The position numbers and the translations under genes are program-made. Of a stretch of 64,000 nucleotides of DNA, positions 2,621 to 63,725 are shown in pieces. The notes under the pieces are model-generated. The model was not told the DNA's origin. It did not search any database and saw only the letters and a program-made list of their open reading frames with translations. The stretch is from an uncultured Gammaproteobacteria bacterium. Its GTDB lineage: Bacteria; Patescibacteriota; Patescibacteriia; CAZGFX01. The stretch covers positions 31,051 through 95,050 of the forward strand of contig CAZGFX010000003.1 of assembly GCA_964524845.1 (NCBI GenBank), written 5' to 3'. Numbering within the stretch: the first letter of the stretch is position 1; every line of letters starts with the position of its first letter.

Positions 2621-4109
2621 ATCTTGTCTCCGTAAATCTACGAACAAGAGCATCGGAATTATCAATCGGAAGTCCATATCTGGAAAAAACCTCGTTTACA
2701 TCATATCTATCACCTTCTTTCCAAAGCAAAACCAAAAATTCGGATGCTGATGGATTTTCAAACCACAAATCTCCAAAAGTGTTTTTAAGATATTCCGCGA
2801 GCGTTACTTCATTCATCCATGCTCGAAGATAATCTGCCGAATAAAAACCATCATCTTGATCAAATAAATAACTCTCTGCATCATATGTAAGTCCGGTATA
2901 TGCATTGAGTTTTGTCGTATAAAAATCACTATCAGAAAAATCGCCTTTCGCGAAGAAATCGAGCTCCGCCTCAAGAATACCTATATAACGTATAAACACC
3001 ATTAAATTAAAAAATGTATATCTGGAATTAATAATCCTCGCTGTTTCTTTGTTAATTGAGAATGTTTTTTCAAGCCACAATGGATCAATTGAGAGGTTTT
3101 CAAACAAAAAAGAAAAAACCTCGCTGAAAACATTCGTTCGACCAAGATTTTTTTCTGCAAAAGAAAGAGATGGGGATGCATGTGAATAATGAAGACCGTG
3201 ACCAAGTTCATGCATGAGGTCCATAACATCATCAAAACCACCCTCTGATTTTGTAAGCACACGAACATCGTGAGGAGGATTAACAGGCCAACACGAAGCG
3301 CGCGCACTCTTCCCTTCTCTAAACTCACTATCTACACGAAGTCCTGGAATTTTAGACAGATCAAAACTTTGACGTAAAAAAGCCGAGGAAATGGCAGGAA
3401 AAATTTTTTCTTTTGAAAAAAGCCCATCAAAAGAGTCTTCGTACATTATATAAAGTACGTGCGCGCGAGACAAGCCTCGAAAAGATCTTCCTGTTTTTTT
3501 ATTAGAAACGATCTCCATTTGTTCTTCGTATATTGATTTGAGCTTTTTGTAAGTTTCTCGCATATTAATACGAACATCCTCGTGAGAGTATTTTTTCATT
3601 ACATCATTGCATTCGATAATTGAATTGGTATTTGTTAAACGCAACAACTCTGGAACCTGAATTTCAAGTGTTTTTTTGTTTAATTCAGTATATTCTTTTT
3701 TATAAGGTATCAAACTATTATACAAAACTTCTCGCTCAGAAAAATCATTTGTTTTTCGAAGTAATGTTGGAACATCTTGTACGTGCAAAGTTGAATCATT
3801 GTATTCTACTACGCTATTTGCTGAAAGTTCTGATAATTTTTGCTCCATATCAGCAGTCTTTGAATCAATAATATGTCCCATGACAGCGTAATAAAGGCGT
3901 TCGCTGTTTTCTCTTTGTCTAGAATTTGAACATTCCTCAATCTCTTTTTTCAAATCAACAAGTTTTTTCTCATCGGCAATATCTTCATACTTTTTCATTA
4001 TTGATTCGTATGAGCTCTCTTTCGATATACCCGCAACAAGATCATATTCATCATTCATGATCTCTTCTTGAAGTTCTTGCAAACGCTTTTCAATTGTATC
4101 GCTTATCAT
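2613..4109 (-). CDS. M3-family zinc oligoendopeptidase (PepF-like)
   Basis: HELGHGLH (HEXXH) zinc motif, about 500 aa, overall M3 architecture. Confidence 0.75.
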   Translation of the reverse strand: MISDTIEKRLQELQEEIMNDEYDLVAGISKESSYESIMKKYEDIADEKKLVDLKKEIEECSNSRQRENSERLYYAVMGHIIDSKTADMEQKLSELSANSVVEYNDSTLHVQDVPTLLRKTNDFSEREVLYNSLIPYKKEYTELNKKTLEIQVPELLRLTNTNSIIECNDVMKKYSHEDVRINMRETYKKLKSIYEEQMEIVSNKKTGRSFRGLSRAHVLYIMYEDSFDGLFSKEKIFPAISSAFLRQSFDLSKIPGLRVDSEFREGKSARASCWPVNPPHDVRVLTKSEGGFDDVMDLMHELGHGLHYSHASPSLSFAEKNLGRTNVFSEVFSFLFENLSIDPLWLEKTFSINKETARIINSRYTFFNLMVFIRYIGILEAELDFFAKGDFSDSDFYTTKLNAYTGLTYDAESYLFDQDDGFYSADYLRAWMNEVTLAEYLKNTFGDLWFENPSASEFLVLLWKEGDRYDVNEVFSRYGLPIDNSDALVRRFTETRYE

Positions 4110-10426: not shown

Positions 10427-10506
10427 ATGTAGTTAAAAGTTACACGGCAGATGCTGAAATGGTGCAGATTCTGAGACAAACTCAGGATTAAAGATTCGGC
10501 ATGACA
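10427..10506. repeat. Family-A palindromic element (inverted copy)
   Basis: Reverse-complement match to TGTCATGCTGAAC...TTTCAGCATCTGCCGTGTAACTTTTAACTACAT, the same element found at 15195 and 41411. Confidence 0.8.
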
Positions 10507-10535
10507 GTGTGTAATATAATCCGCAATTCTCCTTC

Positions 10536-10600
10536 TCGTAATTTCCTCCTCTCATAATTCGTAATTCGCAATCTCCCTCTCGTAATTCGTTCACCCTGTG
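10536..10600. repeat. Family-C microsatellite-like repeat (CTCGTAATTCG units)
   Basis: Repeated cgtaattcg units. The same motif array recurs at 21258-21340. Confidence 0.75.
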
Positions 10601-14879: not shown

Positions 14880-15143
14880 ATGAAACATATGGCAACGAAA
14901 AAGAAAGCTGTTAAAAAATCAGCGGCTAGAAAAGCCATTAAAAGAGTTCGAGCAAAAGGCAAAAAAACCACAAAAAAACGACCCGCGAAAAAAAGTGCCT
15001 CAAAAAAGACAACAAAAAAATGCTCCTGTTGCGGAATGCCGATGTCGCGATGCATAAAAAAAGCTATGAAAAACACAATGTCAGTTGAACCAACTCTTAT
15101 AGCATTTCCTCGAGCAAGTGATACTCCCGATACACAATTTTAA
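14880..15143 (+). CDS. Lys-rich basic protein (87 aa), paralogue 3, with a Cys-containing C-terminal extension
   Basis: K/A/R-rich N-terminal 50 aa. Same GGATGAATAATCC upstream hairpin. Terminator at 15153-15193. Confidence 0.5.
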   Translation: MKHMATKKKAVKKSAARKAIKRVRAKGKKTTKKRPAKKSASKKTTKKCSCCGMPMSRCIKKAMKNTMSVEPTLIAFPRASDTPDTQF

Positions 15144-15194: not shown

Positions 15195-15319
15195 TGTCAT
15201 GCTGAACCTTTAGTCCTGAGTTCGTCTCAAGATCTGAACTCGTTTCAGCATCTGCCGTGTAACTTTTAACTACATTGTCATGCTGAACTCGTTTCAGCAT
15301 CTGCCGTGTAACTTTTAAT
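15195..15319. repeat. Family-A palindromic element: one full copy plus one internally deleted copy
   Basis: TGTCATGCTGAACCTTTAGTCCTGAGTTCGTCTCAAGATCTG...TTTCAGCATCTGCCGTGTAACTTTTAACTACAT at 15195-15275. A 44-nt deleted version lies at 15276-15319. Confidence 0.85.
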
Positions 15320-15360
15320 AATATGGGTTATAAGTTTTCCTAGAAAACATTGTATCAAGG

Positions 15361-15440
15361 TAGATCCTGAAGGGAATATACAGATCCTGAAACAAGTTCA
15401 GGATGACATTGTTCAGGATAAAATTGTTCAGCATGACAAC
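15361..15440. repeat. 20-bp tandem YAGATCCTGAAR units with hairpin partners (ATCCTGAA...TTCAGGAT)
   Basis: Direct reading. The same arrangement recurs at 41575-41645 and 41741-41812. Confidence 0.8.
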
Positions 15441-15545
15441 ATTAATATTCCGCTCTCGTTCCGCTCAGCCGAACTTGTCACATCGAGCGACTATTGTAAT
15501 CTCAAACCAACATTGTCATCTCGAACGAAGTGAGAGATCCACAAA
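15441..15545. repeat. Family-B element (iterated TTGTCACMTCGA motifs ending ...CTCGAACGAAGTGAGAG)
   Basis: Matches copies at 38385, 55118 (reverse orientation) and 59925. Confidence 0.75.
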
Positions 15546-15580: not shown

Positions 15581-15716
15581 GAAGACAAGGTATTGGCGAT
15601 TACCTACTCTCCCAGGTCATAAGACCTAGTACCATCGGCCCGCAAGGACTTAACTGCCGGGTTCGGAATGTGACCGGGTGTACCCCCTCTGGAAGTATCA
15701 CCAATACTCTGTCTTC
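15581..15716 (-). rRNA. rrf: 5S rRNA
   Basis: Helix I pairing gaagacagagtattggtga / tcgccaataccttgtcttc, and an internal CCGAACCCGGCAGTTAAG loop-B/C region. Ends are approximate. Confidence 0.8.
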
Positions 15717-15819
15717 TATAATTTTTGTGATGAATAAAAATGAAATATCACAAACGCATTTTTCGCACGCATACTGAAAAAGAAAGAATGAATCGTATTA
15801 TATACTCATATATATGTGC

Positions 15820-18905
<3,086 letters not shown>

Positions 18906-19071
18906 ACATATACGAGTAGATACTTACTCACTTCTTTACTTTTACTAATTTGTATGCGCGCGAAAATTACGTTTGTAATTTTCGCACGTTTATTCAACTG
19001 TCAACGAACCCTTATGTTGAATGACAATCAACTTTTATATATTATTCAAAAAATTCAACAAAAGCTCTCAT

Positions 19072-21192: not shown

Positions 21193-21257
21193 AATATTTT
21201 TAAATTATTACTTATATCTATATTTTATCATAAACCACAAAAAAACAATTGTTTTCT

Positions 21258-21340
21258 TCTCGTAATTCGTAATTCGTAATTCGTAATTATTATTTCTTCT
21301 CGTAATTCTCTCCTCTCGTAATTCGTAATTCGTAATTTCC
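21258..21340. repeat. Family-C CGTAATT(CG) microsatellite array
   Basis: cgtaattcgtaattcgtaattcgtaatt ... ctcgtaattcgtaattcgtaatt. Same motif as at 10536-10600. Confidence 0.8.
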
Positions 21341-24624: not shown

Positions 24625-26122
<1,498 letters not shown>

Positions 26123-26275
26123 CAAAACATCTGCCGCGAAAAAAATCGCGAAAGATATCAAATTTTGGTTTATAAAGGAATTGGGACCGTAATATCTCAA
26201 ACCAAGATATTGACGGTCTGGTTATTATATTCTGCTGTCAACGTACCAAATTGACCTCTTACGAAGTCGTGTGTG

Positions 26276-35606: not shown

Positions 35607-38270
35607 TTATTCCGCCATCTTCTCTGCGTCGCGAAGTGCGAGAGAGATAAGTTGAGATGTTCCATCCGTACCCATTGTAACTCCGTACAGAGAACTTGCC
35701 GCGTGCATCACAGCTCTATTATGTGTAATACAAATAAATTGTGTGTTTGAAACTAGGTGCTGAAGAATATCAGAAAAACGATCTGAATTCGCCTCATCGA
35801 GCGCCGCATCAACCTCATCAAGTATAACAAATGGCGGTGGATTTGTGGCTATAATAGCACAAATAAGCGCGATAGAAGTCATCGTCTTCTCACCCCCTGA
35901 AAGAACTGATATGTTCATGATCTTTTTTCCAGGAGGCGTCGCCACAATCTCGATGCCCATACGAGAAAGCTTCGATTCTTTTTCAACTAAAGACTTTTTC
36001 TCTTCTGTTTGCTCCTCATCTCCCGTTGATGCGGCGCTCTCAGCCTCCTCGCCAACAACAATTTCTTCTTCTTTCTTTTCCTCAATTTCAACAAGTTTCA
36101 AATGAGCCTTTCCACCATTAAATAACTGTCGGAAATAAAGAGAAAAACTTTCATTAATACGTTTGAAGTTTTCATTAAACTTTTTCTCAATTATAACATC
36201 AAGCTCGCGAACAATGGCCTCAAGGTGTCCGAGAGATGTATTAAGATCTTCTGACTGTGTTTTCAAAAACGTATAACGCTCGGATACTTCTGTGAATTCT
36301 TTCGTAACTTCGGTATCAATACCACCAATATGTTGCAAACGCGCCTTTGTTTTTTGTATTTGATGTTTTAGCTCATCAACAGAAAGATGTGTTTCTTTCA
36401 TTTCAATATTAAAAGAATCCATTTCTTCTGGTAAACACATCTCTTGCTTTATTTCTCTGAGAAGATCTTCTTTGCGTTGTTCAAGTCTGGCTACCTCTAT
36501 TTTTATTTCGTTTGTATTAGATACGGCTTTATTAAATTCATTGGTAAGATTCTTCAAGTCTTCTTGGAGGGTAAATATTTTTTCTCTTTTTCTGTCTTCT
36601 TCTGCATTAAGCTCATCAATTTCCTTACGTTTTGACAACAATTGAATATCAATCTCCTCTATTTGTTTAGTGATATGATCACGATCACGTTGAAGCCCAG
36701 CAATAGCTTCGGTCTGATTCTCCGGTGTAATTTGGGATGCTTTAAGCTCCATTTCTGAACGCTCGAGTGCGCTTCTAGCTTCTGCGAGTCCCGTTTCAGA
36801 CTCAGAAAATTTATTTTGCAAAACCTCAACAGCAACACGTGCATCTGCAAATTTCACATTAAGCGAATCCTTTTCGTGATTTAATTTTTCAAAAACCCCA
36901 TTGAGTTCCGCCCTCTTATCTTCGTGCGATGTATCTGCATCAAGCATCTTATAAATCGTCTCGACCGAATCCAATATTAGACGTGCATCGTCTCTCAACA
37001 CAAAAAACTCATCTAGTGTCTCCGCTGATTCTATTCGAGACACAAAAGAAAATTGTAACTCTTTCACCTTTGCTGCGCTCTCTTTGATTTTCGGAAGTGT
37101 TACAATATTAGAAACAGCGCTTTCTGCGATTGAAATATGATGTTTTACCTCTGAAATTTGCGCATATATTTGATCCTTCATTTCTGTTAGTTCAGAAAGA
37201 TGGTTTTCCGCTTCTTTAAGTCGCGAGATAAAAGAAGAGTGTTCAAATTCTTTCGTACGAACACTTTCTTTCAAATCTTGTATTCTACGTTCAAGCCACC
37301 CGAGATCAGAAGCACCTTTCTGAACGTATTCGCTTTCGAGTTTTACCTGAATAATATTAAGGCTCTGTGCAAGTTGTGTACGAGATGTTTGAAGTCGTTG
37401 ATACTCGTTTTGAATTGTATCGAAAATATCTGATCTTTTTTTCTCTAAAGAAAATTCTTTTAAATGAGACTCTATTGTTTCAATGTCTTTTTTTATCAAT
37501 TCTTGCTCGTTTTGAGCTTTTATTGAAGCTTCAAAATTTTCAGTAAGTTGTTCACTAACGCCATTCCAAAGTATTGAATAATATGTTGTTTGAAGATCTA
37601 TTAATGTTTTTTCAATCATCTCTCTTTCCTCCAAACGCTTCACTTGTCTCGAAAGCATTTTCATACGAGGTTCAAGTTCAGCAAGCGTCAATGAAATTTG
37701 TTCAAGATTGTCACGAGTCAAACCAAGTTTACCTACGGTCTTGTCGCGTTTGATTTGATATTCTCGCACACCTGTCGCCTCATCAAAAAACACTCGTCTG
37801 TCATAAGAACTTGATTTCAAAACTCCATCAATCATTCCTTGTCCTACAATTCCATACGACTTTTGTCCCACGTTTGCACGAGCAAGTAGCAATATAACAT
37901 CGATGAGACGCACTTTTGAATTATTAATATAATATTCTCCTTCTCCTCCGCGAAACACACGACGAGTTAGAACAATCTCGCTGTATTCCATATCCTGTAA
38001 AGATCTGTCTTCGTTGTTTAAATACAATGACACCTCCGCCATATTAAGACGACCTTTTGATTCTGATCCAGCAAAAATAACGTCGTCTCCCTTTTTCGAA
38101 CGCAAAAGCTGCATACTCTGTTCTCCGAGCACCCAACGCATCGCATCAGCAATATTAGACTTACCGGATCCGTTTGGTCCAACCACTGCTGTAATATCTT
38201 TTTTGAACGTAAGAACGGTCTTTTTCGCGAAAGACTTAAATCCTTGAATTTCTATTTTTTGTAGATACAT
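35607..38270 (-). CDS. smc: SMC-family chromosome condensation ATPase (short, about 890 aa)
   Basis: IEIQGFKSF...VVGPNGSGKSNIADAMRWVLGEQS Walker A, coiled coils, C-terminal LSGGEK signature and DE Walker B. Confidence 0.85.
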   Translation of the reverse strand: MYLQKIEIQGFKSFAKKTVLTFKKDITAVVGPNGSGKSNIADAMRWVLGEQSMQLLRSKKGDDVIFAGSESKGRLNMAEVSLYLNNEDRSLQDMEYSEIVLTRRVFRGGEGEYYINNSKVRLIDVILLLARANVGQKSYGIVGQGMIDGVLKSSSYDRRVFFDEATGVREYQIKRDKTVGKLGLTRDNLEQISLTLAELEPRMKMLSRQVKRLEEREMIEKTLIDLQTTYYSILWNGVSEQLTENFEASIKAQNEQELIKKDIETIESHLKEFSLEKKRSDIFDTIQNEYQRLQTSRTQLAQSLNIIQVKLESEYVQKGASDLGWLERRIQDLKESVRTKEFEHSSFISRLKEAENHLSELTEMKDQIYAQISEVKHHISIAESAVSNIVTLPKIKESAAKVKELQFSFVSRIESAETLDEFFVLRDDARLILDSVETIYKMLDADTSHEDKRAELNGVFEKLNHEKDSLNVKFADARVAVEVLQNKFSESETGLAEARSALERSEMELKASQITPENQTEAIAGLQRDRDHITKQIEEIDIQLLSKRKEIDELNAEEDRKREKIFTLQEDLKNLTNEFNKAVSNTNEIKIEVARLEQRKEDLLREIKQEMCLPEEMDSFNIEMKETHLSVDELKHQIQKTKARLQHIGGIDTEVTKEFTEVSERYTFLKTQSEDLNTSLGHLEAIVRELDVIIEKKFNENFKRINESFSLYFRQLFNGGKAHLKLVEIEEKKEEEIVVGEEAESAASTGDEEQTEEKKSLVEKESKLSRMGIEIVATPPGKKIMNISVLSGGEKTMTSIALICAIIATNPPPFVILDEVDAALDEANSDRFSDILQHLVSNTQFICITHNRAVMHAASSLYGVTMGTDGTSQLISLALRDAEKMAE

Positions 38271-38384
38271 TAGCCAAAAATTACAACACCGATACTTTAA
38301 CACGTATTTTGTTAAATTTCTATACCAACGTGGGGATTGTTATTAATAAACAAAAAAGAGATTTAACAAAAACCTCTTTTTTGC

Positions 38385-38530
38385 ACACTCGCTTCGCTCA
38401 ACCCCCGCAAAGCGGGATCCCGTCTTGCGGGAATTGTCACCTCGAACAAAGTAGCCTGTCCCGACGAATGTCGGGAAGAAGTCTTCTTGCTCCATGACTT
38501 TTGACTTTTGACACATTCGCTTCGCTCAGT
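38385..38530. repeat. Family-B element bounded by CGCTTCGCTCA direct repeats
   Basis: cactcgcttcgctcaacccccgcaaagcgggatcccgtcttgcgggaattgtcacctcgaac...cattcgcttcgctcag. It shares about 40 nt almost exactly with 59990-60040. Confidence 0.8.
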
Positions 38531-38556: not shown

Positions 38557-39309
38557 TTATAACCACCCTTTCTTAACAAGTCCTTTGCGAGCGGCTTCGA
38601 CTTGTGCGTCTTGCTTGCTCGATCCCTCTCCTTCGGCAAGTAGTTCATCGGCTAAATATATTCCTACAATAAAATGTTTTTTGTGATCTGGACCTGTTTC
38701 AGAAAGCACCTTATAAGAAGGTGTTACACCAATTTTGTCTTGTGCCGCCTCTTGAAATAAACTTTTTGGATCAAGATACGATTTTTCTTCAAGAATATTC
38801 GAGAGATGTACAAGTATATGCATTTTTATGAATTCCTGACACGGACGATATCCCTGGTCGAGATACAATCCACCTATAATCGCTTCCATCGCATCAGCCA
38901 TAATATATTGACGAGCTTTTGAATTTGAATCCTTGGCCTCGCCTTTACTGAGATACAGATGTGGTTCCACATCTAGTTTTGTCGCAACCTCCGCGAGCAT
39001 GTTTGCATTAACAAGTGCGGCTCTCCAGTTTGTAAGTTCTCCTTCCGAATTCGGATAATTATGATAAAGATATTCGGTAATAACGAGTTCGAGTACGGCA
39101 TCACCTAAAAATTCGAGACGCTCATTGTGGTTGAGTTCGAATCCTGGGTGCTCATTAATATATGAGCGATGCACAAGTGCTTGGCGCAATAAATCTTTGT
39201 TTTTGAAAACAACTTTTAAGTTATTCTCTAGTAATATAATATCTTGCATACATGTGGTTGCATTAATGTTTTCTACTGATCTTTTCTTCTTTTTGTTTCG
39301 CATTTTCAT
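38557..39309 (-). CDS. rnc: Ribonuclease III
   Basis: ERLEFLGDAVL signature plus a dsRBD-like C-terminus. The true start may be the internal Met at 39249. Confidence 0.85.
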   Translation of the reverse strand: MKMRNKKKKRSVENINATTCMQDIILLENNLKVVFKNKDLLRQALVHRSYINEHPGFELNHNERLEFLGDAVLELVITEYLYHNYPNSEGELTNWRAALVNANMLAEVATKLDVEPHLYLSKGEAKDSNSKARQYIMADAMEAIIGGLYLDQGYRPCQEFIKMHILVHLSNILEEKSYLDPKSLFQEAAQDKIGVTPSYKVLSETGPDHKKHFIVGIYLADELLAEGEGSSKQDAQVEAARKGLVKKGWL

Positions 39310-40198
39310 CCGCAGGGTGTGTTTCTACTTTGAACCCAAGTCTTCTTAGACCATCGCGAAAAATATCTTTTGTATTTTCATATCCCAAAAGTCCAAGTGC
39401 CGCACCGGCATCAAACCAACGCGCATCCTGTAATTCTGGCTCTTTTGGAATTGTGAGTTTTACATCTGTTGCCTCAATGAGATAATAATGGACTGTTTTT
39501 GGTATTGGGGCTTTGTTCGGTTCATTAACAATAATCGAAATTGTTCCCAATTTTTCACGTACAACGAGGTTTTTCAAACCAACCTCTTCACCTATTTCGC
39601 GTTGAGCCGCATCTTCCAAGTCTTCGCCCTCGTTCATTTTTCCCTTCGGAAACGTCCATCGTCCTATCGCGTCTTTAATGAGCACAAATTTATATCCATC
39701 TGAATCTTTGTGATAAACCATTCCTCCTGCAGAAATCTGTCTCTCTCCTCCGTCCGAAAGTATTTTACGTATTTCGATTCCACCTTTTGTTTCTATATTT
39801 TTCAAAAGAGATCCCAAAACACCGTTCACAAATTTACTCGATGAAGGTGAACCAAATGTTTTCGCTAGTTCGATCGCTTCATTAATCGCAACTTTTGGTG
39901 GAATATCGTGAACATAGCGCAACTCATATACACCAATACGAAGTACGTTTCGATCTACGTTTGATATATGATCGATTGGCCACGCCGGTGCATACTGTGC
40001 AATTAAAGAATCAATTTCTACACGGTGCTCCAAAACTCCTTTGAGAAGGTTTTTAATAAATCCATTATCCCGATATCCGACCGCAAATTCACGAACATTG
40101 CGATCAAGAAGTATCTGGGCATCTACTTCAAAATTATTAAAATCACACTCAAACAAAGTTTGAAGAACCAAAGAACGAGCAAGGTGCCTATTTGACAT
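39263..40198 (-). CDS. NusB-like N-terminal domain fused to a C-terminal Nudix hydrolase domain
   Basis: N-terminus SLVLQTLFECDF...NAIELAKTFG is NusB-like. C-terminus GKMNEGEDLEDAAQREIGEEVGL is a Nudix box (GX5EX7REUXEEXGU). Confidence 0.7.
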   Translation of the reverse strand: MSNRHLARSLVLQTLFECDFNNFEVDAQILLDRNVREFAVGYRDNGFIKNLLKGVLEHRVEIDSLIAQYAPAWPIDHISNVDRNVLRIGVYELRYVHDIPPKVAINEAIELAKTFGSPSSSKFVNGVLGSLLKNIETKGGIEIRKILSDGGERQISAGGMVYHKDSDGYKFVLIKDAIGRWTFPKGKMNEGEDLEDAAQREIGEEVGLKNLVVREKLGTISIIVNEPNKAPIPKTVHYYLIEATDVKLTIPKEPELQDARWFDAGAALGLLGYENTKDIFRDGLRRLGFKVETHPADENAKQKEEKISRKH

Positions 40199-40293
40199 AT
40201 GTGCAAAGAATGAACAATTATTTAATTTTAAAGCTTTTAAAAAGCATTAATGAACAAACAGAAAATAATCGTACAAAAATATGAACGATTTAT

Positions 40294-40491
40294 TTACTTG
40301 TTGGTATTGAGATTCGCTTTGACGTTTACCTTAACGTCTTTTTTGTAGTATCCGCACGCAGAACACGCATGATGAGGTAGTGTTGATGTTCCGCATTGCG
40401 AACATATGTTAACGGAAACAGTTTCAAGCGCATGATGACCTCGACGAGCTCGAGTTCTTCGTTTTGAATATCGTTTTGACGGAAGACCCAT
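40294..40491 (-). CDS. rpmF: 50S ribosomal protein L32
   Basis: Basic N-terminus and a CxxC...CxxC zinc ribbon (CSQCG...CSACGYY). Confidence 0.75.
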   Translation of the reverse strand: MGLPSKRYSKRRTRARRGHHALETVSVNICSQCGTSTLPHHACSACGYYKKDVKVNVKANLNTNK

Positions 40492-40845
40492 ATACTAAGA
40501 TCATTACTGATTAATCTGATGCTATGTGTATATTTTTATATAAAAACACACATCTGCACCGCAACTATATACGTTATTTCGGTCTTTGTAAAGCCTAAAA
40601 AACGCCAAAGTGTTTGAAAAAATATGTTTTTTTATAAAATCATATTAAAAGTGCATAAACTATGGACAAAGTGTGGATAATATGTGATTATAATTAAATT
40701 AAAATAAACAGTTATTTGGCTAAGGTAAGACGATAAATCGTATTTTTCTTATTTTTAACATCTTCTTTGAAATTGACATTTTCTTTTTATGATGCTAACA
40801 TAAACATGCTCGTTAAAAAGGAATTCTGATACGTGCTTTTATATG

Positions 40846-41057
40846 TGTGTTGACGACAAGCATGGAAGTTTTTCTCTAAGTACATCCGGCTCAGGCTTGA
40901 TGTCGCTAGAGAAAAGTTTTCTTCAACACACATATGAGTGCGTGTTTCATAAGTAAAGCAGCTTAGGAAGTGTGTTGACGACAAGCATGGAAGTTTTTCT
41001 CTAAGTACATCCGGCTCAGGCTTGATGTCGCTAGAGAAAAGTTTTCTTCAACACACC
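40846..41057. repeat. Two 86-bp palindromic MITE-like copies (TIR GTGTGTTGA...TCAACACAC) separated by 38 bp
   Basis: 40846-40931 and 40970-41055 are near-identical. Each is a long imperfect hairpin with 9-bp terminal inverted repeats. Confidence 0.85.
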
Positions 41058-41085
41058 TCCCAGGCTGTTTTTTTGTTTTACAATA

Positions 41086-41402
41086 AATTGAAGCGAGCCG
41101 AAGTGCTCGCATCAAATTGGATGAGACATCTTCCTGACATCCGTCAGGACAGGCGCTTTCGTGCTCGATGTGACAAGCTCCATAAAGCGATAGCGTGCGG
41201 GGTATGTAGAGATATTTTTGGATGAAAAGGATAAGCGACTTGTTCGAGAGAACATAAAAATATAAATCATGAAGCGAGCCGAAGTGCTCGCATCAAATTG
41301 GATGAGACATTTTCCTGACATCCGTCAGGACAGGCGCTTTCGTGCTCGATGCGACAATGTTGGTCGAGGTGACAAGTTCCGCAAAGCGATAGCGTGCGGG
41401 GT
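41086..41402. repeat. Two roughly 120-bp direct repeats (gaagcgagccgaagtgctcgcatcaaattggatgagaca...gcgatagcgtgcgggg)
   Basis: Copies at 41086-41205 and 41270-41402. The second carries a 21-nt insertion resembling family B (gtcgaggtgacaag). Confidence 0.85.
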
Positions 41403-41410
41403 GTTAATAT

Positions 41411-41575
41411 TGTCATGCTGAACCTTTAGTCCTGAGTTCATCTCAGGATCTGCGCCCTTTCAGCATCTACCGTGTAATTTTTAACTACATTGTCATGCTG
41501 AACCTTTAGTCCTGAGTTCATCTCAGGATCTGCGCCCTTTCAGCATCTGCTGTGTGACTTTTGATAATATGAGTA
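41411..41575. repeat. Two tandem family-A palindromic elements
   Basis: Copies at 41411-41490 and 41491-41575. They match 15195-15275 at about 90% identity. Confidence 0.85.
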
Positions 41576-41812
41576 GATCCTGAAACAGGTACATAGATCC
41601 TGAAAGGAATACATAGATCCTGAAATAAATTCAGGATGACAAGGTCAGTTCAGAATGACACAGGCACATTGTATCAAGGAAGATTCTGAAACGAGTTCAG
41701 AATGACACAGGCACATTGTATCAAGGAAGATTCTGAAACAGATATATAGATCCTGAAAGGAATACACAGATCCTGAAATAAATTCAGGATGACATTGTTC
41801 AGGATGGTGGTG
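41575..41812. repeat. GATCCTGAAA 20-mer arrays flanking two 45-bp tandem copies (gttcagaatgacacaggcacattgtatcaaggaagattctgaaac)
   Basis: 20-mers at 41581-41640 and 41746-41800. 45-mers at 41648-41692 and 41695-41739. Confidence 0.85.
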
Positions 41813-41816
41813 CAAA

Positions 41817-43703
41817 TTACTGTGACAAAGCACCCGAAGAATCATTGGTATTTGATAACCCTGGGTTGTTGTTCTCTCCATTTTCATCAACAGATATCAC
41901 ATCTGTAGAAACAGTTGGTGCATTTGGATCTTTTCCTCTCATGCATATCGCGGGCCATGCTTTATAATTACTGAAAAAGGTTTCTTTTTCTTCGTGTCCA
42001 TCAGAATATTTTACAACATAATCAAAAGATGCCTTGACTCCTTTATGAGCCCTCTCTGTACACTTCTCTTCTCCAAATTTTAACTCATCTGTTTCCACAT
42101 ATTGAACTGGGCCTGGGTCAGTCCACCCCCATACAGACGGTGTTGTTCTATATGCTGTTCGCCCATCTTTTGTTCCCCAAAAATCAAAAAATACATTTGT
42201 TCCCTCAACACGTCCACTTATTAATATATAATTACCTGTATCATTTAAAAATCTTAAATCTGGTTTCGGATAATATATTGTGGCATCAACCCCCGGAAGC
42301 CCATCTTCGAGATAATAAGTAACATTATACGAGTGGTTTCTTCGCTCAAGAATTTTGAGTCCTGATGAAAGCGCGGCTCGAAAAACAGTTGTTCCAATCT
42401 GACATAGTCCACCACCATATTCTTTCTGTGTTTTATTTCCTTTTATAACCAACTCTGGTAAATATCCTTGTTCCGCAGTCGTACTACCAAGAAGCGCTAT
42501 AAGAGAAAACTCCTCGTTCGGAGCAAGAAGTGTTCCATCAACCGTATGAACACCTATTTTTATATTATGAATACGATTTGCTGGTGATCCTGCAAAATTT
42601 GATTCACCAGTTCCAACAACCTCTGTAATACCTAATGTATTAACATCTTTGGTGTGTATTTTTGGCAAAGCCTCTTTCACAATAAGTGAAACTGAATTTG
42701 TACGAGTATTAAACAAGGACTCTGTGATCGACTCAACTAAGTTGTCCATATCAATTTCTCGTCCGTTTCTTGAAGGAATAAACTCCTTAACCTTATTATC
42801 TTTTATTTCAAGTTTGGCATCCTGTGGAGCACGCTCAATTACAGAACGCATTTCTTTAATAGATTCGTATAACTTTTCTTTCGATATGTTTAGAGCCGGT
42901 TTTTTTGTTTCTTCATTAAAAGACAGAACTATCCATTTGATATATTCTTTATAAAAGAACTTCCATTTTTGCTTCTCATATATTAAAGAAATTGCTGGGA
43001 GTACTGATTTTAGTTCATCAAAAACAGTTAGAAGCGGGGACGCATCGCTTTCAGAAAAACGAGGATCAGTATTTTTTTTGATCAAGTTGATCGGTGTTAT
43101 TGAAAAAGAAGAAACCATTGAACGAGTGTCTATTAAAGCCGCGTCCAGATCAAACTCGATTCCTTTTTGAGCCCGTGTTATTTCATATGAACCGTCTTCG
43201 TGCCACAAGAGTTCAGGCTCTGTTCCTTTTTGAACAAGTGTTTCGAGACTTTCTTCCATTGTCATGCGCCACAAACTATCATTAATTGAATATATAAAAT
43301 TTGTTTTAATCGGAAAAATCATATGATTTAGACGTTCCCACATGGTGCCTGTTCTACCTGTTTCATATGCAAGAAGAACTGTTTTTTGAATATCAACATC
43401 AACAATTTCCTGAGCAAGCGCTGGATCGTCTGTTAATATTCTTGATGGAATGTTTATAGGAGAATGCCCGTCAATTAAATATGTAAATCCTTTTGCAAGT
43501 GCTTCTTCTGTTTTTTCAGTCAAAAGTCTTTCCGCAGTCTCACTGCTCAAGCCACCAACGGCATATCCATCGACCGAAACATTTGGAAATATACGTCCTT
43601 CATACTGATATATATATAGGAAAACAACTAGAGATACAACAACAAGACACCCACACATTATAATGAGAGCATCGATAAAATATCTGACAAGTCGTTGAAT
43701 CAT
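41817..43703 (-). CDS. VanW-domain protein with an N-terminal membrane anchor
   Basis: ...EYGGGLCQIGTTVFRAALSSGLKILERRNHSY... matches the VanW conserved core. Confidence 0.7.
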   Translation of the reverse strand: MIQRLVRYFIDALIIMCGCLVVVSLVVFLYIYQYEGRIFPNVSVDGYAVGGLSSETAERLLTEKTEEALAKGFTYLIDGHSPINIPSRILTDDPALAQEIVDVDIQKTVLLAYETGRTGTMWERLNHMIFPIKTNFIYSINDSLWRMTMEESLETLVQKGTEPELLWHEDGSYEITRAQKGIEFDLDAALIDTRSMVSSFSITPINLIKKNTDPRFSESDASPLLTVFDELKSVLPAISLIYEKQKWKFFYKEYIKWIVLSFNEETKKPALNISKEKLYESIKEMRSVIERAPQDAKLEIKDNKVKEFIPSRNGREIDMDNLVESITESLFNTRTNSVSLIVKEALPKIHTKDVNTLGITEVVGTGESNFAGSPANRIHNIKIGVHTVDGTLLAPNEEFSLIALLGSTTAEQGYLPELVIKGNKTQKEYGGGLCQIGTTVFRAALSSGLKILERRNHSYNVTYYLEDGLPGVDATIYYPKPDLRFLNDTGNYILISGRVEGTNVFFDFWGTKDGRTAYRTTPSVWGWTDPGPVQYVETDELKFGEEKCTERAHKGVKASFDYVVKYSDGHEEKETFFSNYKAWPAICMRGKDPNAPTVSTDVISVDENGENNNPGLSNTNDSSGALSQ

Positions 43704-55117: not shown

Positions 55118-55262
55118 ACACTGAACGAAGCGAACGCAGTAAGGATGAGACCTCTTCCTTCGGTCGAGGTGACAGTGTTGAGCGAAGCGAACGTAGTAAG
55201 GATGAGACCTCTCCCTTTGGTCGAGGTGACAATGTTGAGCGTAGCGAATGTGCCAAAAAAAA
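55118..55262. repeat. Family-B element: about 2.3 tandem 57-60-bp units
   Basis: AGCGAAGCGAACGYAGTAAGGATGAGACCTCTYCCTTYGGTCGAGGTGACARTGTTG repeated. It is the reverse complement of the 60070-60130 region. Confidence 0.85.
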
Positions 55263-59841: not shown

Positions 59842-59924
59842 GCCGCGGTGGTGAAATTGGTATACACGCATGCCTTAGGAGCATGTGCGAAAGCATGAGA
59901 GTTCGAGTCTCTCCCGCGGCACCA
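59842..59924 (+). tRNA. tRNA-Leu (TAG), class II with long variable arm
   Basis: GCCGCGG acceptor, CTTAGGA anticodon loop, variable arm TGCGAAAGCATG, GGTTCGAGTC T-loop, CCGCGGC-A-CCA. Confidence 0.85.
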
Positions 59925-60170
59925 TTCGATCGTCGCTCCGTTCCTCACTCATGGCAGAGCCACCAGAATTCATCGCTTTGCTCAACTCCCGCGAAGTGGG
60001 ATCCTACCTTGCGGGAATTGTCACCTCAGCCAACTTTGTCACATCGACCCACTTTGTCACCTCGACCAACATTGTCACCTCGAACGAATGTGAGAGGTCT
60101 CCCCCTCCGTATCACCTTGCCACATCTCGCTCGCACGAAAAAACTAAATTTTTCGTTCGAACGAGACGTT
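59925..60170. repeat. Family-B element immediately downstream of tRNA-Leu
   Basis: cgcgaagtgggatcctaccttgcgggaattgtcacctc, then iterated ttgtcacMtcgaNc motifs, then gtgagaggtctcc. The ORFs 59793..60208 and 59885..60208 inside it are spurious. Confidence 0.85.
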
Positions 60171-60218
60171 GCATAAACGGCGCACATTATCTGAAATTTT
60201 ATTTTTAATTTTAATAAC

Positions 60219-60617
60219 ATGGAAACAAACAAATTGCCACGCAACATAATTTTGGCTAGTATTTTATTAATAGCACTATCAATCAGCTATTATTATTTGA
60301 TTTTTCTGCCTCAAAAAGAAAATACTAGAATTAAAACCAACTGTATTGATAAGGTGCTTAAAGAAATGAAAGACGCTCATCCCAAAATGCAAACCGATGA
60401 GATTACTAATTTTAGAATTGCTAACGATAGAGGTTGCTTTATAGAGGCAGGTTGTATGCAAGGAGTACAAGATGCTAATTTCAAACCTAAATTTAGTGAA
60501 TGCAATAATGATTATTATAATTCTTGTTTATCTAATATAAAAAACCAGGCAGAAGAAATGATTCAGGCAGAAAAATCAAAAAGGATTAATGAATGCATTG
60601 ATCTTTATTCAAATTAA
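60219..60617 (+). CDS. Small secreted or anchored Cys-containing protein (AT-rich islet)
   Basis: N-terminal hydrophobic anchor and several Cys residues. The sequence is noticeably AT-richer than backbone genes. Confidence 0.5.
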   Translation: METNKLPRNIILASILLIALSISYYYLIFLPQKENTRIKTNCIDKVLKEMKDAHPKMQTDEITNFRIANDRGCFIEAGCMQGVQDANFKPKFSECNNDYYNSCLSNIKNQAEEMIQAEKSKRINECIDLYSN

Positions 60618-60806
60618 AATTAAAAGTAAAACATCATATAACACCAAATATACGACTATTCTTTTAAAAATATCTTAAATTTATTTTTCATTAATTATAG
60701 AGGGGTATAAGGTGTTTTCTCCGCGGAGTTTACCCCGCAACCAATGCGGGGCTACGAAAACGATTTATTTATAAGGGGAAAACAATTATAATAATTATAA
60801 CCAACC

Positions 60807-61925
60807 ATGAAAATTGCTATGAATAAAAAGAGTAAAAAGACAAAAAAATTAAACGTCGCTACGGTTTTTAGTGGTATCGGTGCTTTTGAACATGCGCTAG
60901 AAAGAATGAAAATTGAACATGAAATAATATTTGCTTGTGATAATGATGAACAATGTAAAAAAACATATTTTGCAAATTATAAGATACTGGAAGACAATTG
61001 GTATAATGATATTTTTTCTTTAAATGGTAAGAAATATAAAAATTGCGTAGACATTTTAATAGGAGGAAGTCCATGCCAATCATTTTCTATGGTTGGCAAA
61101 AGAAAAGGGCTAAAAGATGACAGGGGTAATTTAATATTTGAATATATTAAATTAATCAAAGACGTTGAACCAAATGTTTTTATTTTTGAAAATGTAAAAG
61201 GTTTATTAAATCATGAGCAAGGGAAAACATGGACATTTATTGAAAAATCATTTAAAAAGTTGGGGTATGTTGTTAAACATCAAGTTCTAAATGCAAAAAA
61301 TTATGGCATACCGCAAAACAGAGAAAGAGTATTTCTAGTTGGATTTAAAAACAAAAAAGTAAATTTTGAATTTCCAAATCCAGTTAAACTTGAAATTACA
61401 ATGCAGGATTTATTAGAAGATAATCTAGATTCTAAATATTATTTAGGGAATAAGGGCATAAGTTTTGTCACGAAACAAAAAAACCTAGATAAAAGATATA
61501 CACAAATTAATGGCAATATTGCGCTTTGCCAAAAAGCTAATCAACAATTTAATTGGCATGGGGATTTTATTCTAGAAAAAGCAAAAAAGGACGTTGAAAA
61601 TAAATACTATTTATCGGAGAAAGTTAAAGATTATGTTTTAAAAACCGGTACAAAAAATTTTTATTCAAAACCAAAAACAGATTTACCAGTAGCAAGACCA
61701 TTGTTACAAAGTATGCATAAGATGCATAGAGCTGGAGTTGACAATTACATAACCAAGGGTGAAAAAATAAGAAAGCTTACACCAAGAGAGTGTCACAGAT
61801 TAATGGGTTTTTCAGATAATTTTAAAATAGTTGTTAGCGACACGCAGGCTTATAGACAGGCTGGCAATAGTATCGTTGTCCCAGTTATTATTGAGGTATT
61901 AAAAAAAATATTATTACATTTATAA
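60807..61925 (+). CDS. DNA (cytosine-5)-methyltransferase
   Basis: Motif I FSGIGAF, motif IV GGSPCQSFS, motif VI ENVKGL, motif VIII QVLNAKNYGIPQNRERVF, motif X QAGNSIVVPV. Confidence 0.9.
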   Translation: MKIAMNKKSKKTKKLNVATVFSGIGAFEHALERMKIEHEIIFACDNDEQCKKTYFANYKILEDNWYNDIFSLNGKKYKNCVDILIGGSPCQSFSMVGKRKGLKDDRGNLIFEYIKLIKDVEPNVFIFENVKGLLNHEQGKTWTFIEKSFKKLGYVVKHQVLNAKNYGIPQNRERVFLVGFKNKKVNFEFPNPVKLEITMQDLLEDNLDSKYYLGNKGISFVTKQKNLDKRYTQINGNIALCQKANQQFNWHGDFILEKAKKDVENKYYLSEKVKDYVLKTGTKNFYSKPKTDLPVARPLLQSMHKMHRAGVDNYITKGEKIRKLTPRECHRLMGFSDNFKIVVSDTQAYRQAGNSIVVPVIIEVLKKILLHL

Positions 61926-61931
61926 TAATTT

Positions 61932-62903
61932 ATGAAATTACAAATACTAGGTAAAAATTACAAAGTACTTGATGCAAAAGAAAAAATAACAATAGCAGAT
62001 TCTTTTGTTGTAAGACAAAATAAAATAGGAACAGGAAACGGTGAAGCTAAGCTTTATGTTGGCAACGACAATGAAGAAGTGCGAAATTTTTTTGGCAGTA
62101 GCGGTTTTGCAGTCGACTGTTTCTTGTTAAAAAAAGACCTAATAAAATATTTAGAAGAAACTAAAGTTGAATATTTAAATCCAGAGCAACCCTATATCAA
62201 TAAAAGCAGTCTCCCTGAGTTATGGAAAACAAGAAAAGACAAAGTAAATTCATTGCCTGAAATTATAGAATTTACTGTTATAGAGCAAACTCAAATTGCG
62301 GGACCAAGGATATATATAAATTCTTCAGATGAAGCATATTCCTTGATAAGAGAATTATCTTTACCTAATGTAACATATATTTCAGTGATCAAACTTACAA
62401 ATGAAGACAATAAACTGTTTTATTATTTCCGTTTATTCGCAGACTATTTTGGTGAGGTAGAACATCCATTTTTAATTAAAAAAGAAAGTGATGAAATAAA
62501 AGATGCACAACTAGACATTGTTGAAAAAACACAATTATACAAGGCGAGGGTAGGGCAAGGAGAATATCGAAAAAAATTATTAGAACTTTGCCCATTTTGT
62601 CCAATTACTTTGGTTTCTGATGATAGGCTACTTATTGCAAGCCACATTAAACCATGGGCTTCTTCAAATAATTTTGAAAAAACAGATCCAATGAATGGTT
62701 TTATGCTTACTCCAACTTTTGATTTTCTTTTTGATAGAGGTTTTCTTTCTTTCACTGATGATAAAAAAACAATTTTATCGCCATTTCTTTCTAATATGAC
62801 ATATTCAAAAATTGGAATTTCTAATAATAAGTTAATACTTCATCTGAAAACAGAAGGACGTGAGAAGTACCTAGAATATCATAGAAAAAACATTTTTAAA
62901 TAA
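61932..62903 (+). CDS. HNH (His-Me finger) nuclease-domain protein; candidate Type II restriction endonuclease partner
   Basis: RVGQGEYRKKLLELCPFCPIT...LLIASHIKPWASS...NGFMLTPTFDFLFDRG is an HNH core with a CxxC zinc ligand pair. The start lies 7 nt after the MTase stop. Confidence 0.65.
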   Translation: MKLQILGKNYKVLDAKEKITIADSFVVRQNKIGTGNGEAKLYVGNDNEEVRNFFGSSGFAVDCFLLKKDLIKYLEETKVEYLNPEQPYINKSSLPELWKTRKDKVNSLPEIIEFTVIEQTQIAGPRIYINSSDEAYSLIRELSLPNVTYISVIKLTNEDNKLFYYFRLFADYFGEVEHPFLIKKESDEIKDAQLDIVEKTQLYKARVGQGEYRKKLLELCPFCPITLVSDDRLLIASHIKPWASSNNFEKTDPMNGFMLTPTFDFLFDRGFLSFTDDKKTILSPFLSNMTYSKIGISNNKLILHLKTEGREKYLEYHRKNIFK

Positions 62904-62905
62904 GG

Positions 62906-62975
62906 AGTTTTGGGCTTCGGGCATTCACCCCTTTAATTCCCCTCTGTCCTTCGCCCAAAACGAAAAAAGAAATTT
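62906..62975 (+). terminator. Long stem-loop (gttttgggc...gcccaaaac) after the nuclease gene
   Basis: Directly read inverted repeat followed by an A/T-rich stretch. Whether it terminates transcription is uncertain. Confidence 0.35.
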
Positions 62976-63083
62976 TAAAATTTTTAAAACAATTCCGACT
63001 GCTGTCGGAAAAAAGAAAAGGAATACATCAGCTAACACGGCATATCTAGTTACTGCTTTTATACAAAAGCCTCCGCCCATATT

Positions 63084-63725
63084 TTGTTCCGCTACGCTCC
63101 ACAAAACATCAGATATGCCAAAACGTTAGATGAAATTTTATTTTTTATGGATTATAATGATGTCCAAGCACGTCTAAAAAATATTTACTCGTCCATAGAC
63201 GAGCAATATTCTTATGGTCATGAGGCTCTTGGTATGGCTCATTGGGAACAAACTGACAATCAAATTAGCTTTTCCTTTCTTAATCCAAACAATAAACCAA
63301 GGGTTATAAATCAAATAAACAATGTCATTTCAAACCTTGCCAACATAAAAGATTGCCTAAAGAAAAAACTTCAAGACAGAGGCGACGATCCTCAAGCTAT
63401 TGAGTACGAAATTAACGACTCATTGTACTTGCAGTTGGTTCTCGATTTATCTAACCAAGAAAAGCACGGCTACCCGCTTACAAAAACTAGTCGATCTCAA
63501 AAAAACCCACTCATTAAAAACGTTAACCGAGGACTTTCACGCTCGAACAGACTAGACAATATTAGATATGAACAAAGCGACGGTTCTGTAATAGTTAATA
63601 TGATGATCATTATAACCGCAGACGTAACAGACTCTCAGGACAATCTTTTGTGTCGGCTTGATGAATTAGTAGAAAACGCTCTTAAGTTTTGGGAGAATAC
63701 TATAAAAAAATATAACATCGACTAA
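63084..63725 (+). CDS. Hypothetical protein (AT-rich islet)
   Basis: 213-aa ORF. A start at the internal Met MDYND is also possible. Confidence 0.45.
   Translation: MFRYAPQNIRYAKTLDEILFFMDYNDVQARLKNIYSSIDEQYSYGHEALGMAHWEQTDNQISFSFLNPNNKPRVINQINNVISNLANIKDCLKKKLQDRGDDPQAIEYEINDSLYLQLVLDLSNQEKHGYPLTKTSRSQKNPLIKNVNRGLSRSNRLDNIRYEQSDGSVIVNMMIIITADVTDSQDNLLCRLDELVENALKFWENTIKKYNID

Follow-up and report, generated by a model that had tools for sequence, protein, structure and literature searches.

Short palindromic repeats crowd three spacers of a Patescibacteria genome, which raises the question of what these repeats are and what might act on them. The window analysed here is a stretch of 64,000 nt from contig CAZGFX010000003.1 (positions 31,051 to 95,050). 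An initial annotation described an 80-nt element, here called family A, in five copies, accompanied at two loci by arrays of "GATCCTGAAA 20-mers". It attributed the shared stem core either to recognition by one protein, in the manner of repetitive extragenic palindromic (REP) sequences and bacterial interspersed mosaic elements (BIMEs), or to a family of small structured RNAs. We find that the repeats are best classed as a low-GC member of a recently described repeat family in an ultra-small bacterium, and not as a new kind of system.

A single hairpin unit underlies all three loci

When the sequence was re-read, every one of the five family-A copies was found where it had been placed, namely four full elements of 80-81 nt and one internally deleted copy of 49 nt (Table 1). 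Outside the window, about 3 kb to its left, a short-read contig of the host opens with a sixth copy (L051:1-45). Tandem Repeats Finder reported the family-A tandem with a period of 80 (41409-41562, 1.9 copies, 94% matches). The 20-mer arrays proved to be real, with a period of 20 at 41574-41630 and 41728-41783 according to the same program and a further pair at 15362/15382. The predicted "45-mer" is indeed a tandem repeat, but its unit measures 47 nt (41647-41739, 2.0 copies, 100% identical). A period-15 array was delimited at 15396-15438, and a stretch of 67 nt at 41575-41641 recurs at 41728-41794 with 94% identity, 153 nt apart. Motif counts were compared with those in dinucleotide-preserving shuffles: the 20-nt family-A tail TTTCAGCATCTRCYGTGTRA had 5 matches versus 0.05 expected, TGTCATNCTGAAC with at most one mismatch had 10 versus 0.27, and AGATYCTGAAR had 9 versus 0.20. 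The repeat cluster is a genuine, non-random feature.

One unit of 27 nt, TGTCAT-N-CTGAA(C/T), 3 nt, TTTCAG-Nʹ-ATCT, accounts for all of these repeats. Its frame can be written as 5ʹ-(T)GTC / AT-N-CTGAA / loop / TTCAG-Nʹ-AT / C(T)-3ʹ. The short family-A copy (15276-15324) is the bare unit plus a 22-nt tail, while the full copies are the unit with a loop of 36-37 nt and a tail seen in this genome alone, the loop carrying a nested, degraded second unit (GTCCTGAG ttcat CTCAGGATCT). Read on the minus strand, the 20-mers are N9 plus TTTCAGGATCT, that is, repeated 3ʹ arms of the hairpin, and these extra arms come after the full units at 41615-41641, 41768-41794 and 15382-15408. The 47-mer is a T:A-type unit plus tail and the 15-nt repeats at 15396-15438 are 5ʹ arms; half-units or whole units duplicated in tandem make up the 20-bp, 15-bp and 47-bp arrays.

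Within the window, N and Nʹ are always complementary (G:C in family A, C:G in the arrays and T:A in the 47-mer). Eight of the nine full units combine a perfect 8-bp stem with the two critical flanks, GTC ahead of the palindrome and C behind it, and the loops of the perfect-stem units measure 5 or 36-37 nt. The start (T)GTCAT is found in 9/9 full units and in three of five isolated 5ʹ half-units, and all full units close with AT-C-T, the C standing directly after the palindrome. We also defined a site by structure, as GTCAY, a perfect stem, a loop of at most 45 nt and then C. The window contains 8 such sites versus 0.66 in shuffles, and 16 versus 2.6 for stems of at least 5 bp. Unrelated control loci contain about one structural site per 64 kb, excluding L017, which is the host's own contig, and L047, which holds a true unit. 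Folded as single-stranded DNA (ssDNA) with DNA parameters, the units reach -5.3 to -6.7 kcal/mol and the full family-A element reaches -11 kcal/mol (z -3.6 to -4.7).

The unit recurs in phages and plasmids

IMG/VR was searched with the 27-nt pattern, requiring an exact match with N and Nʹ free. This gave 64 exact matches in 51 loci, on contigs with a GC content of 28-67% that carry portal, terminase and capsid genes. By BLAST, the unit was also found in plasmids of Sphingobium, Novosphingobium and Sphingomonas, with up to 100% identity over 25 nt, and in plasmids of Sulfurovum and Treponema, with 90-96% identity. That an identical hairpin is present in genomes of such different GC content points to horizontal spread and to strict recognition of the sequence.

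In all 64 viral matches N and Nʹ are complementary (C:G 33, G:C 21, T:A 10), and sister hairpins have other stems, each self-complementary (ATTCCGAA, ACCCTGAA, ACCTTGAA and ATCCCGGA). The initial annotation had named additional copies and covariation as the test of its proposal, and both were found: besides the sixth copy and the outside units, seven of the eight stem pairs vary on both sides over 52 distinct units (51 cells), a level reached by 0 of 500 shuffles, and the covariation collapses when the register is slid. As the selection of the 52 units demanded at least 7/8 pairs, the percentage paired is biased, whereas the variety of pair types is not. In a palindrome-core search without flanks over the protein-fetched loci, GTCA upstream and TCT downstream appeared on one strand at nearly all sites. 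Long-loop units like the full family-A element were found elsewhere too.

Family-A copies themselves were found in neither GTDB genomes nor JGI metagenomes when these were scanned with the 20-nt tail. The scans of genome and metagenome contigs returned single matches only, without the extended tail or the 13-mer, and one of these matches (L047) is a true G:C unit with a chance-similar flank. As far as the GTDB and JGI tail scans reach, the 80-nt composite appears to be private to this genome.

A side observation concerns three phage contigs (L066:813, L098:8881 and L079:10697), in which the 27-nt unit lies within the loop of a larger G+C-rich hairpin. A T run comes after the enclosing hairpin in L066 and L098, so that the unit was apparently inserted in a terminator loop. 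This placement parallels the nested unit of family A.

The unit flanks genes of small GIY-YIG proteins

Literature searches on repeats of the candidate phyla radiation and on literal AT-rich motif strings found nothing. The link to a published system came from GC-rich cousins of the motif, GTCATTCCCGCG..., which led to the Neisseria Transformation Sequence (NTS) and the broader class of Ssn-related motifs (SRM) reported by Chenal et al. (Nat Commun 2025, PMC11893778). According to the main text of that study, the NTS, CGTCATTCCCGCGMAVGCGGGAATCYRG, contains dRS3 and has a variant, NTSvar, CGTCATACTCGGGNNNNNCCCGAGTATC. NTS/SRM hairpins flank the genes of SsnA, a 94-aa single-domain GIY-YIG protein (cd10448), which binds the hairpin as ssDNA only and not as the reverse strand, duplex or RNA. 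Cleavage by SsnA occurs a few nucleotides upstream of the hairpin, on one strand and in ssDNA only. Cutting depends above all on the 3 nt that precede the palindrome, and binding on the C that follows it; altered, lengthened or absent loops are tolerated, and split hairpin halves work. Residues Tyr6, Tyr17 and Glu64 were mutated in the study, whose enzymes came from Neisseria, N. elongata, N. wadsworthii and Wolbachia. The same text states that NTS clusters reduce the transformation of DNA bearing them, and that an Ssn is encoded in 81% of the genomes containing over 200 SRMs.

The CTGAA-type unit likewise flanks single-domain GIY-YIG genes of the Ssn type in other genomes, standing on both sides of the gene in Melainabacteria and in one phage contig. 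An approximate Ssn consensus, used as a tblastn probe only, led to ORF (open reading frame) 559-834 of phage contig L107, which encodes 92 aa and matches PF01541 GIY-YIG at E 3e-17. Several hairpin units come after this ssn gene within about 200 nt, two of them being TGTCATGCTGAACTCGTTTCAGCATCT, the full 27-mer of the window's 15276-15324 copy. The ORF has more than 5,000 homologues, many on tiny contigs, and two of these (P0234 and P0175) were looked up for the details of gene association.

The P0234 gene encodes 95 aa with PF01541 as the sole domain. Upstream of it, at 30 nt, lies TGTCATCCTGAACTTGTTTCAGGATCT, and an inverted copy overlaps the stop codon, forming a 372-bp SRM-ssn-SRM unit; this holds at all 10 places with both flanks present (L125-L134). 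Its host, placed by a neighbouring DnaG, belongs to Gastranaerophilales (Melainabacteria). For P0175 (92 aa; L115-L124), GTCATGCTGAACTCGTTTCAGCATC lies 11 nt downstream and more units lie upstream; this sequence, which is the window's 15276-15324 unit read from its G, is identical to the ssn-adjacent units in phage contig L113 and in L115-L124. Over the segment that runs from the G of GTC to the C behind the palindrome, units of the P0234, P0175 and L107 type are identical to window positions 15383-15407 and 15277-15301. The unit-flanked proteins are single-domain, 92-97 aa long, and match PF01541 and, weakly, T5orf172. Tyr8, Tyr19 and Glu66 of P0234 stand at a constant offset of +2 from Tyr6, Tyr17 and Glu64 of SsnA, and from this numbering, rather than from an alignment, we infer that the residues are equivalent. 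The idea of one protein recognising a shared stem core, REP/BIME-like, thus survives in the form of a 27-nt hairpin with asymmetric GTC/C flanks, which stands beside Ssn-type genes elsewhere.

Nuclease substrates, orphan repeats or a mobile module

We consider it likely that a low-GC, CTGAA version of the SRM/NTS-type hairpin repeats makes up the clusters at the three loci, with the nuclease action extrapolated from the published enzymes. By this analogy, the GTCAT strand would fold into the hairpin when it turns single-stranded, as in transforming DNA, replication, conjugation or phage DNA. A cognate Ssn nuclease would then bind the folded hairpin, requiring the C after the palindrome, and would nick the ssDNA a few nucleotides 5ʹ of GTC, and such nicking would trim recombination substrates around the clusters. 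Family A would stay a substrate because loops are dispensable. An SRM-ssn-SRM unit may act as an insertion sequence (IS)-like unit that seeds solitary hairpins. More speculatively, the clusters in the Patescibacteria genome may have grown locally, by tandem duplication and nesting into loops, and might help to gate the recombination of imported DNA in a lineage believed to be reliant on DNA uptake.

Several points weigh against the SRM/NTS interpretation. The activity of an Ssn on the CTGAA type is presumed from other Ssn enzymes. No ssn-like ORF was found in about 70 kb (the window and about 6 kb of flanks, with L017, L051 and L056) by tblastn with 120 Ssn proteins or with a hidden Markov model built from them, the best E being 0.04; a weak tblastn match at 38258-38359 was rejected as noise. 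A protein search for ssn loci in viral contigs recovered just the known one (L107), and an ssn gene is present in only 1 of the 51 phage loci, which suggests that the hairpins do not need the nuclease to persist and may serve some other purpose. Family-A copy 5 (10427-10506) has C.A mismatches and does not fold as ssDNA on the unit strand, which is the recognised one. Phased half-unit arrays are not described in the main text of PMC11893778. Finally, the published pattern, HGTCWYN(0-2)YYVSBRHN(0-5)WNVSBRGN(0-2)RNCYNB, had 0 matches in the window versus 0.08 in shuffles. It fails here because its V and S positions demand G/C in the stem and the stems of the window are AT-rich; the pattern is a search heuristic and not a functional definition.

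The lack of a nuclease or transposase gene in the same 70 kb would equally suit a rival that overlaps the SRM/NTS interpretation, namely orphan selfish repeats. These would be hairpins resembling REP sequences or miniature inverted-repeat transposable elements (MITEs), once mobilised by Ssn or another transposase, that now drift without an enzyme and grow by slippage or tandem duplication. Copy 5 is decayed, truncated half-units are present, and the local duplicates are near-perfect (47-mer 100%, 67-mer 94%, family-A copies 1 and 2 95%). In addition, the clusters occupy transcriptionally neutral spots, one of them between convergent terminators. Set against drift are the perfect 8-bp stem and the two critical flanks retained by 8/9 full units. 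The region examined is about 7% of a typical 1-Mb genome, and the 81% of SRM-rich genomes that encode an Ssn (main text of PMC11893778) also speak against orphans. On balance, we find the orphan-repeat explanation plausible, if less likely.

It is also conceivable, though in our opinion unlikely, that the CTGAA hairpin is a horizontally mobile single-strand module. The flanked GIY-YIG protein would be the transposase of an unrecognised IS-like class, the module would insert into exposed hairpin loops, and the clusters and half-unit arrays in Patescibacteria would be multi-register cutting sites that gate the recombination of imported ssDNA. Loop insertion would explain both the unit nested in the family-A loop and the units in phage terminator loops. 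On this unlikely reading, the hairpin would also have passed, unaltered in sequence, through many phages and at least four bacterial phyla.

Possible action on RNA or on double-stranded DNA

A role at the RNA level, as small structured RNAs or as stabiliser or terminator hairpins in 3ʹ untranslated regions, would fit the folding of both composite loci, which form one long foldback on either strand, well beyond shuffles (z -7.0 to -8.9). The ATCCTGAA hairpins had also been flagged as weak terminator-like sites downstream of VanW. However, the long foldback results from the inverted layout, in which the plus strand carries the left-hand units and the minus strand the right-hand ones, and is therefore no evidence for RNA; the two strands fold equally, as with any inverted repeat. 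The stem mismatches are C.A on the unit strand in 3/3 cases and thus G.U on the opposite strand, but three of three in one direction has a probability of about 1/8, and this strand asymmetry was rejected as RNA evidence since it comprises three events only.

Scanning the window with Rfam 15 gave just rRNA and tRNA above the gathering threshold. No family came near it, the best sub-threshold match having 33.8 bits versus a threshold of 97, and the others were microRNA-precursor models that fit any long hairpin. With respect to local transcription and to the flanking genes, units point either way, and two convergent transcription units both end, at their terminators, before reaching the cluster at 15195-15438. 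Given the Rfam null result and a unit orientation independent of transcription, the small-RNA reading is not supported. Furthermore, the Neisseria SsnA does not bind the RNA form (main text of PMC11893778), and asymmetric GTC/C flanks with cross-phylum identity at differing GC content fit protein recognition of DNA. We regard an RNA-level role, the second half of the initial annotation's proposal, as highly improbable.

The 20-bp phased AGATCCTGAAA arrays might instead be bound as double-stranded DNA, in the manner of iterons or centromeres, by a protein of replication, partition or the nucleoid. Their 11-bp core is directly repeated with a 20-bp period, about two helical turns, and a perfect DnaA box lies about 900 bp off in the same spacer. 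Yet no rep, par or dnaA gene near the arrays turned up in Pfam scans of the 48 main window ORFs, DnaA boxes number 19 in the window versus 19.1 expected, and the cumulative GC skew has no lasting reversal across it. Moreover, the 11-mer is exactly the hairpin 3ʹ arm plus CT, every array is joined to a full unit, and half-unit runs of a similar kind stand beside units in an unrelated phage contig (L070). Such double-stranded sites are, in our estimate, very improbable. A replication origin or DnaA-box cluster was rejected on the same box counts and skew. Three perfect DnaA boxes (TTATCCACA) were noted, all in spacers (10334, 13887 and 40672).

Other candidates were rejected as well. The DNA uptake sequence of Neisseria ends in CTGAA, but in the window this core exceeds chance only at the three intergenic loci. 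Tn7/Mu-like transposon ends, integron attC sites and CRISPR arrays were dismissed because no gene for a transposase, an integrase or a Cas protein is present, the spacing does not fit and the attC core is not matched. The same Pfam scans found no transposase, recombinase or GIY-YIG protein. Synteny with relatives was of no help: the best VanW homologue is 42% identical, and the spacer downstream of it has other repeats and lacks these motifs.

Layout of the loci and genomic context

The window has a GC content of about 36% and contains typical Patescibacteria genes. The closest VanW relatives, with at most 42% identity, are labelled Patescibacteria, Buchananbacteria or Falkowbacteria. All three repeat loci are intergenic (Table 1). 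The locus 41411-41806 is flanked by the VanW stop codon (41817) and rpmF/nusB, the locus 15195-15438 lies between the convergent terminators of ORF 14880-15143 and the 5S rRNA, and the locus 10427-10506 lies between the stop codon and the terminator of FtsK. The span 15195-15438 seems to be bounded by 13-bp inverted repeats because of the outer 5ʹ half-unit at its right end. Of six contig ends examined in the short-read contigs of the host, three fall inside repeats (L017 at about 41768 and both ends of L051), indicating that short-read assemblies break at the units.

Table 1. Hairpin units, half-units and family-A copies in the window
Feature	Position	Strand	Remarks
Family-A copy 1	41411-41490	+	G:C-type unit GTC + ATGCTGAA ... 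TTCAGCAT + C at 41412-41467; 36-nt loop with nested unit; tail; folds as ssDNA at -11 kcal/mol, z -4.1
Family-A copy 2	41491-41570	+	Head-to-tail with copy 1, 95% identical; variant tail ...TTTTGATAATAT
Two extra 3ʹ half-units (N9 + TTTCAGGATCT)	41575-41614	-	20-nt phase; downstream, on the minus strand, of 41615-41641
Full C:G-type unit TGTCATCCTGAATTTATTTCAGGATCT	41615-41641	-	Otherwise flagged merely as a weak terminator-like hairpin
Isolated 5ʹ half-unit TGTCATTCTGAAC	41648-41660	-	
T:A-type unit TGTCATTCTGAACTCGTTTCAGAATCT + 20-nt tail	41661-41707	-	One copy of the 47-nt tandem repeat
Two extra 3ʹ half-units (TTTCAGAATCT, TTTCAGGATCT)	41728-41767	-	20-nt phase
Full C:G-type unit	41768-41794	-	Duplicate of 41615-41641
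Truncated 5ʹ half-unit CATCCTGAAC	41797-41806	-	10 nt from the VanW stop codon (41817-41819)
Family-A copy 3 (81 nt)	15195-15275	+	Begins right after the terminator of ORF 14880-15143
Family-A short copy	15276-15324	+	Bare G:C-type unit TGTCATGCTGAACTCGTTTCAGCATCT + A tail
One extra 3ʹ half-unit (CTTCAGGATCT)	15362-15381	-	
Full C:G-type unit TGTCATCCTGAACTTGTTTCAGGATCT	15382-15408	-	Identical to Melainabacteria ssn-flanking units (L125-L134)
Two 5ʹ half-units, ATCCTGAAC and TGTCATGCTGAAC	15411-15438	-	15-nt phase
Family-A copy 5, solitary	10427-10506	-	Between FtsK stop and terminator; C.A mismatches in both stems

Several features of the neighbouring genes were also recorded. A small minus-strand ORF at 40290-40492, MGLPSKRYSKRRTRARRGHHALE...CSACGYYK, resembles ribosomal protein L32 (rpmF); as it is below the size of the ORF list, the real non-coding spacer is 40493-41816. 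Next to it, the minus-strand ORF 39263-40198 combines a NusB domain and a NUDIX hydrolase domain in one frame. The rRNA operon is split: protein genes occupy the roughly 4.9 kb between 16S (24625-26123, minus) with tRNA-Ile on one side and 23S-5S (15591-18909, minus) on the other. The 23S match is 3100 nt compared with a 2925-nt model, leaving about 175 nt extra. From 59842 to 63725 and on into L056, a tRNA-Leu, an 18-mer array, a hypothetical gene, a C5 cytosine methylase and an HNH_2 endonuclease come in order, with a Fic protein beyond the window, past the endonuclease; this region may be an integrated island with a restriction-modification system.

Other repeats in the window

A second repeat class, TGTCA(C/T)CTCGA(A/C)C...GAG(A/G)(G/A)TC, has the same GTCA...TC frame with a weak 5-bp stem. 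Its sites are 15514-15540 (TGTCATCTCGAACGAAGTGAGAGATCC), 41135-41175 and 41346-41384 (pieces), 55122-55248, 60018-60100 and 38389-38443, with TGTCACCTCGACC... at 55148-55231 and 60018-60100, and it includes the 18-mer array directly 3ʹ of tRNA-Leu. The sequence 15515-15539 occurs exactly in phage contigs L137 and L138, with a GC content of 48-59%. The other repeat families of the window look related to the main unit.

Two longer elements stand in the spacer downstream of VanW. An 87-nt element with a long internal inverted repeat is present twice with 100% identity (40845-40931 and 40970-41056), and in a distant relative the reverse complement of its 13-mer ACGACAAGCATGG recurs twice, at L052:2950-2962 and 3167-3179, downstream of the VanW homologue. 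The other element, of 88 nt, also has two copies, with 98% identity (41089-41176 and 41270-41357); on the minus strand, it comprises a GCGAGC...GCTCGC hairpin with a UUCG-containing loop and a GTCAC...GTC hairpin of the second class. Runs of the heptamer TCGTAAT occur in two spacers, 10532-10576, which adjoins family-A copy 5, and 21255-21340, and a related motif, AATCCGCAATT, comes after the sixth family-A copy in L051.

Implications

The analysis turns a repeat cluster into a testable pairing of a 27-nt ssDNA hairpin with a 95-aa nuclease subfamily, and extends the one-year-old Ssn-related family past its published search pattern. As this pattern misses AT-rich versions, the SRM family is likely broader than reported, taking in Patescibacteria, Melainabacteria and many phages. 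In Patescibacteria, which are believed to rely on DNA uptake, the cutting of incoming single strands at marked sites could shape recombination. In these bacteria, competence genes are prevalent and GIY-YIG genes have been horizontally transferred (PMC12455944). The CTGAA hairpin is a candidate new specificity for ssDNA tools, and nesting, the 80-nt composite and phased half-unit arrays are unusual local elaborations in this Patescibacteria genome.

Comparison with known systems

Pneumococcal BOX elements and bacterial MITEs are modular intergenic repeats. Like them, the loci described here are modular composites with variable tandem modules and foldback-capable ends in intergenic positions. 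In contrast, target-site duplications and a related transposase are lacking here, and the modules are copies of one hairpin unit: 13-bp inverted ends are present at 15195-15438, yet no copy is flanked by a direct duplication, and a transposase was not found.

REP palindromes, which work with REP-associated tyrosine transposases (RAYTs), carry a GTAG or GTGG signature and are recognised as ssDNA hairpins. The resemblance to REP, BIME and REPIN systems is close: short extragenic palindromes, a conserved 5ʹ tetranucleotide that sets orientation, recognition of an ssDNA hairpin, clusters of alternating orientation and a position flanking the gene of the repeat's own enzyme. The signature here is GTCA, unlike GTAG or GTGG, and the associated gene encodes a GIY-YIG nuclease, unlike the Y1 (IS200/IS605-like) transposase. 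Neither a Y1 transposase nor a RAYT was found among the main window ORFs scanned.

Neisserial dRS3 repeats and intergenic mosaic elements were reportedly described by Parkhill et al. in 2000. They share with the present loci the mosaic intergenic clusters and a short palindromic core between variable segments, but the dRS3 core is ATTCCCN8GGGAAT. dRS3, the palindrome inside the NTS, is also a phage integration target.

The closest counterpart is the NTS/SRM-Ssn system. Differences concern the stem, which is AT-rich here (AT-N-CTGAA) and GC-rich in the published motifs (ATTCCCGCG), the host, as Patescibacteria are absent from the main text of PMC11893778, and the nested units, 80-nt composites with a private tail and phased half-unit arrays of the window. 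The likenesses extend to both partners. The window units are semi-palindromes of 20-50 nt that form an ssDNA hairpin with a free loop, have (H)GTCWY as an oriented 5ʹ flank whose GTC immediately precedes the palindrome, and carry a cytosine right after the palindrome (RNCY), as defined for SRMs. In both systems the hairpin is oriented, with a 5ʹ foot GTCAT, a 3ʹ foot ATC and a variable, dispensable loop, and the units are intergenic and clustered. CTGAA units flank single-domain GIY-YIG genes of 92-97 aa on both sides in inverted orientation, with the catalytic Tyr, Tyr and Glu at apparently equivalent positions, and the two flanks critical to the published enzymes, GTC before the palindrome and C after it, are kept in the units of the window.

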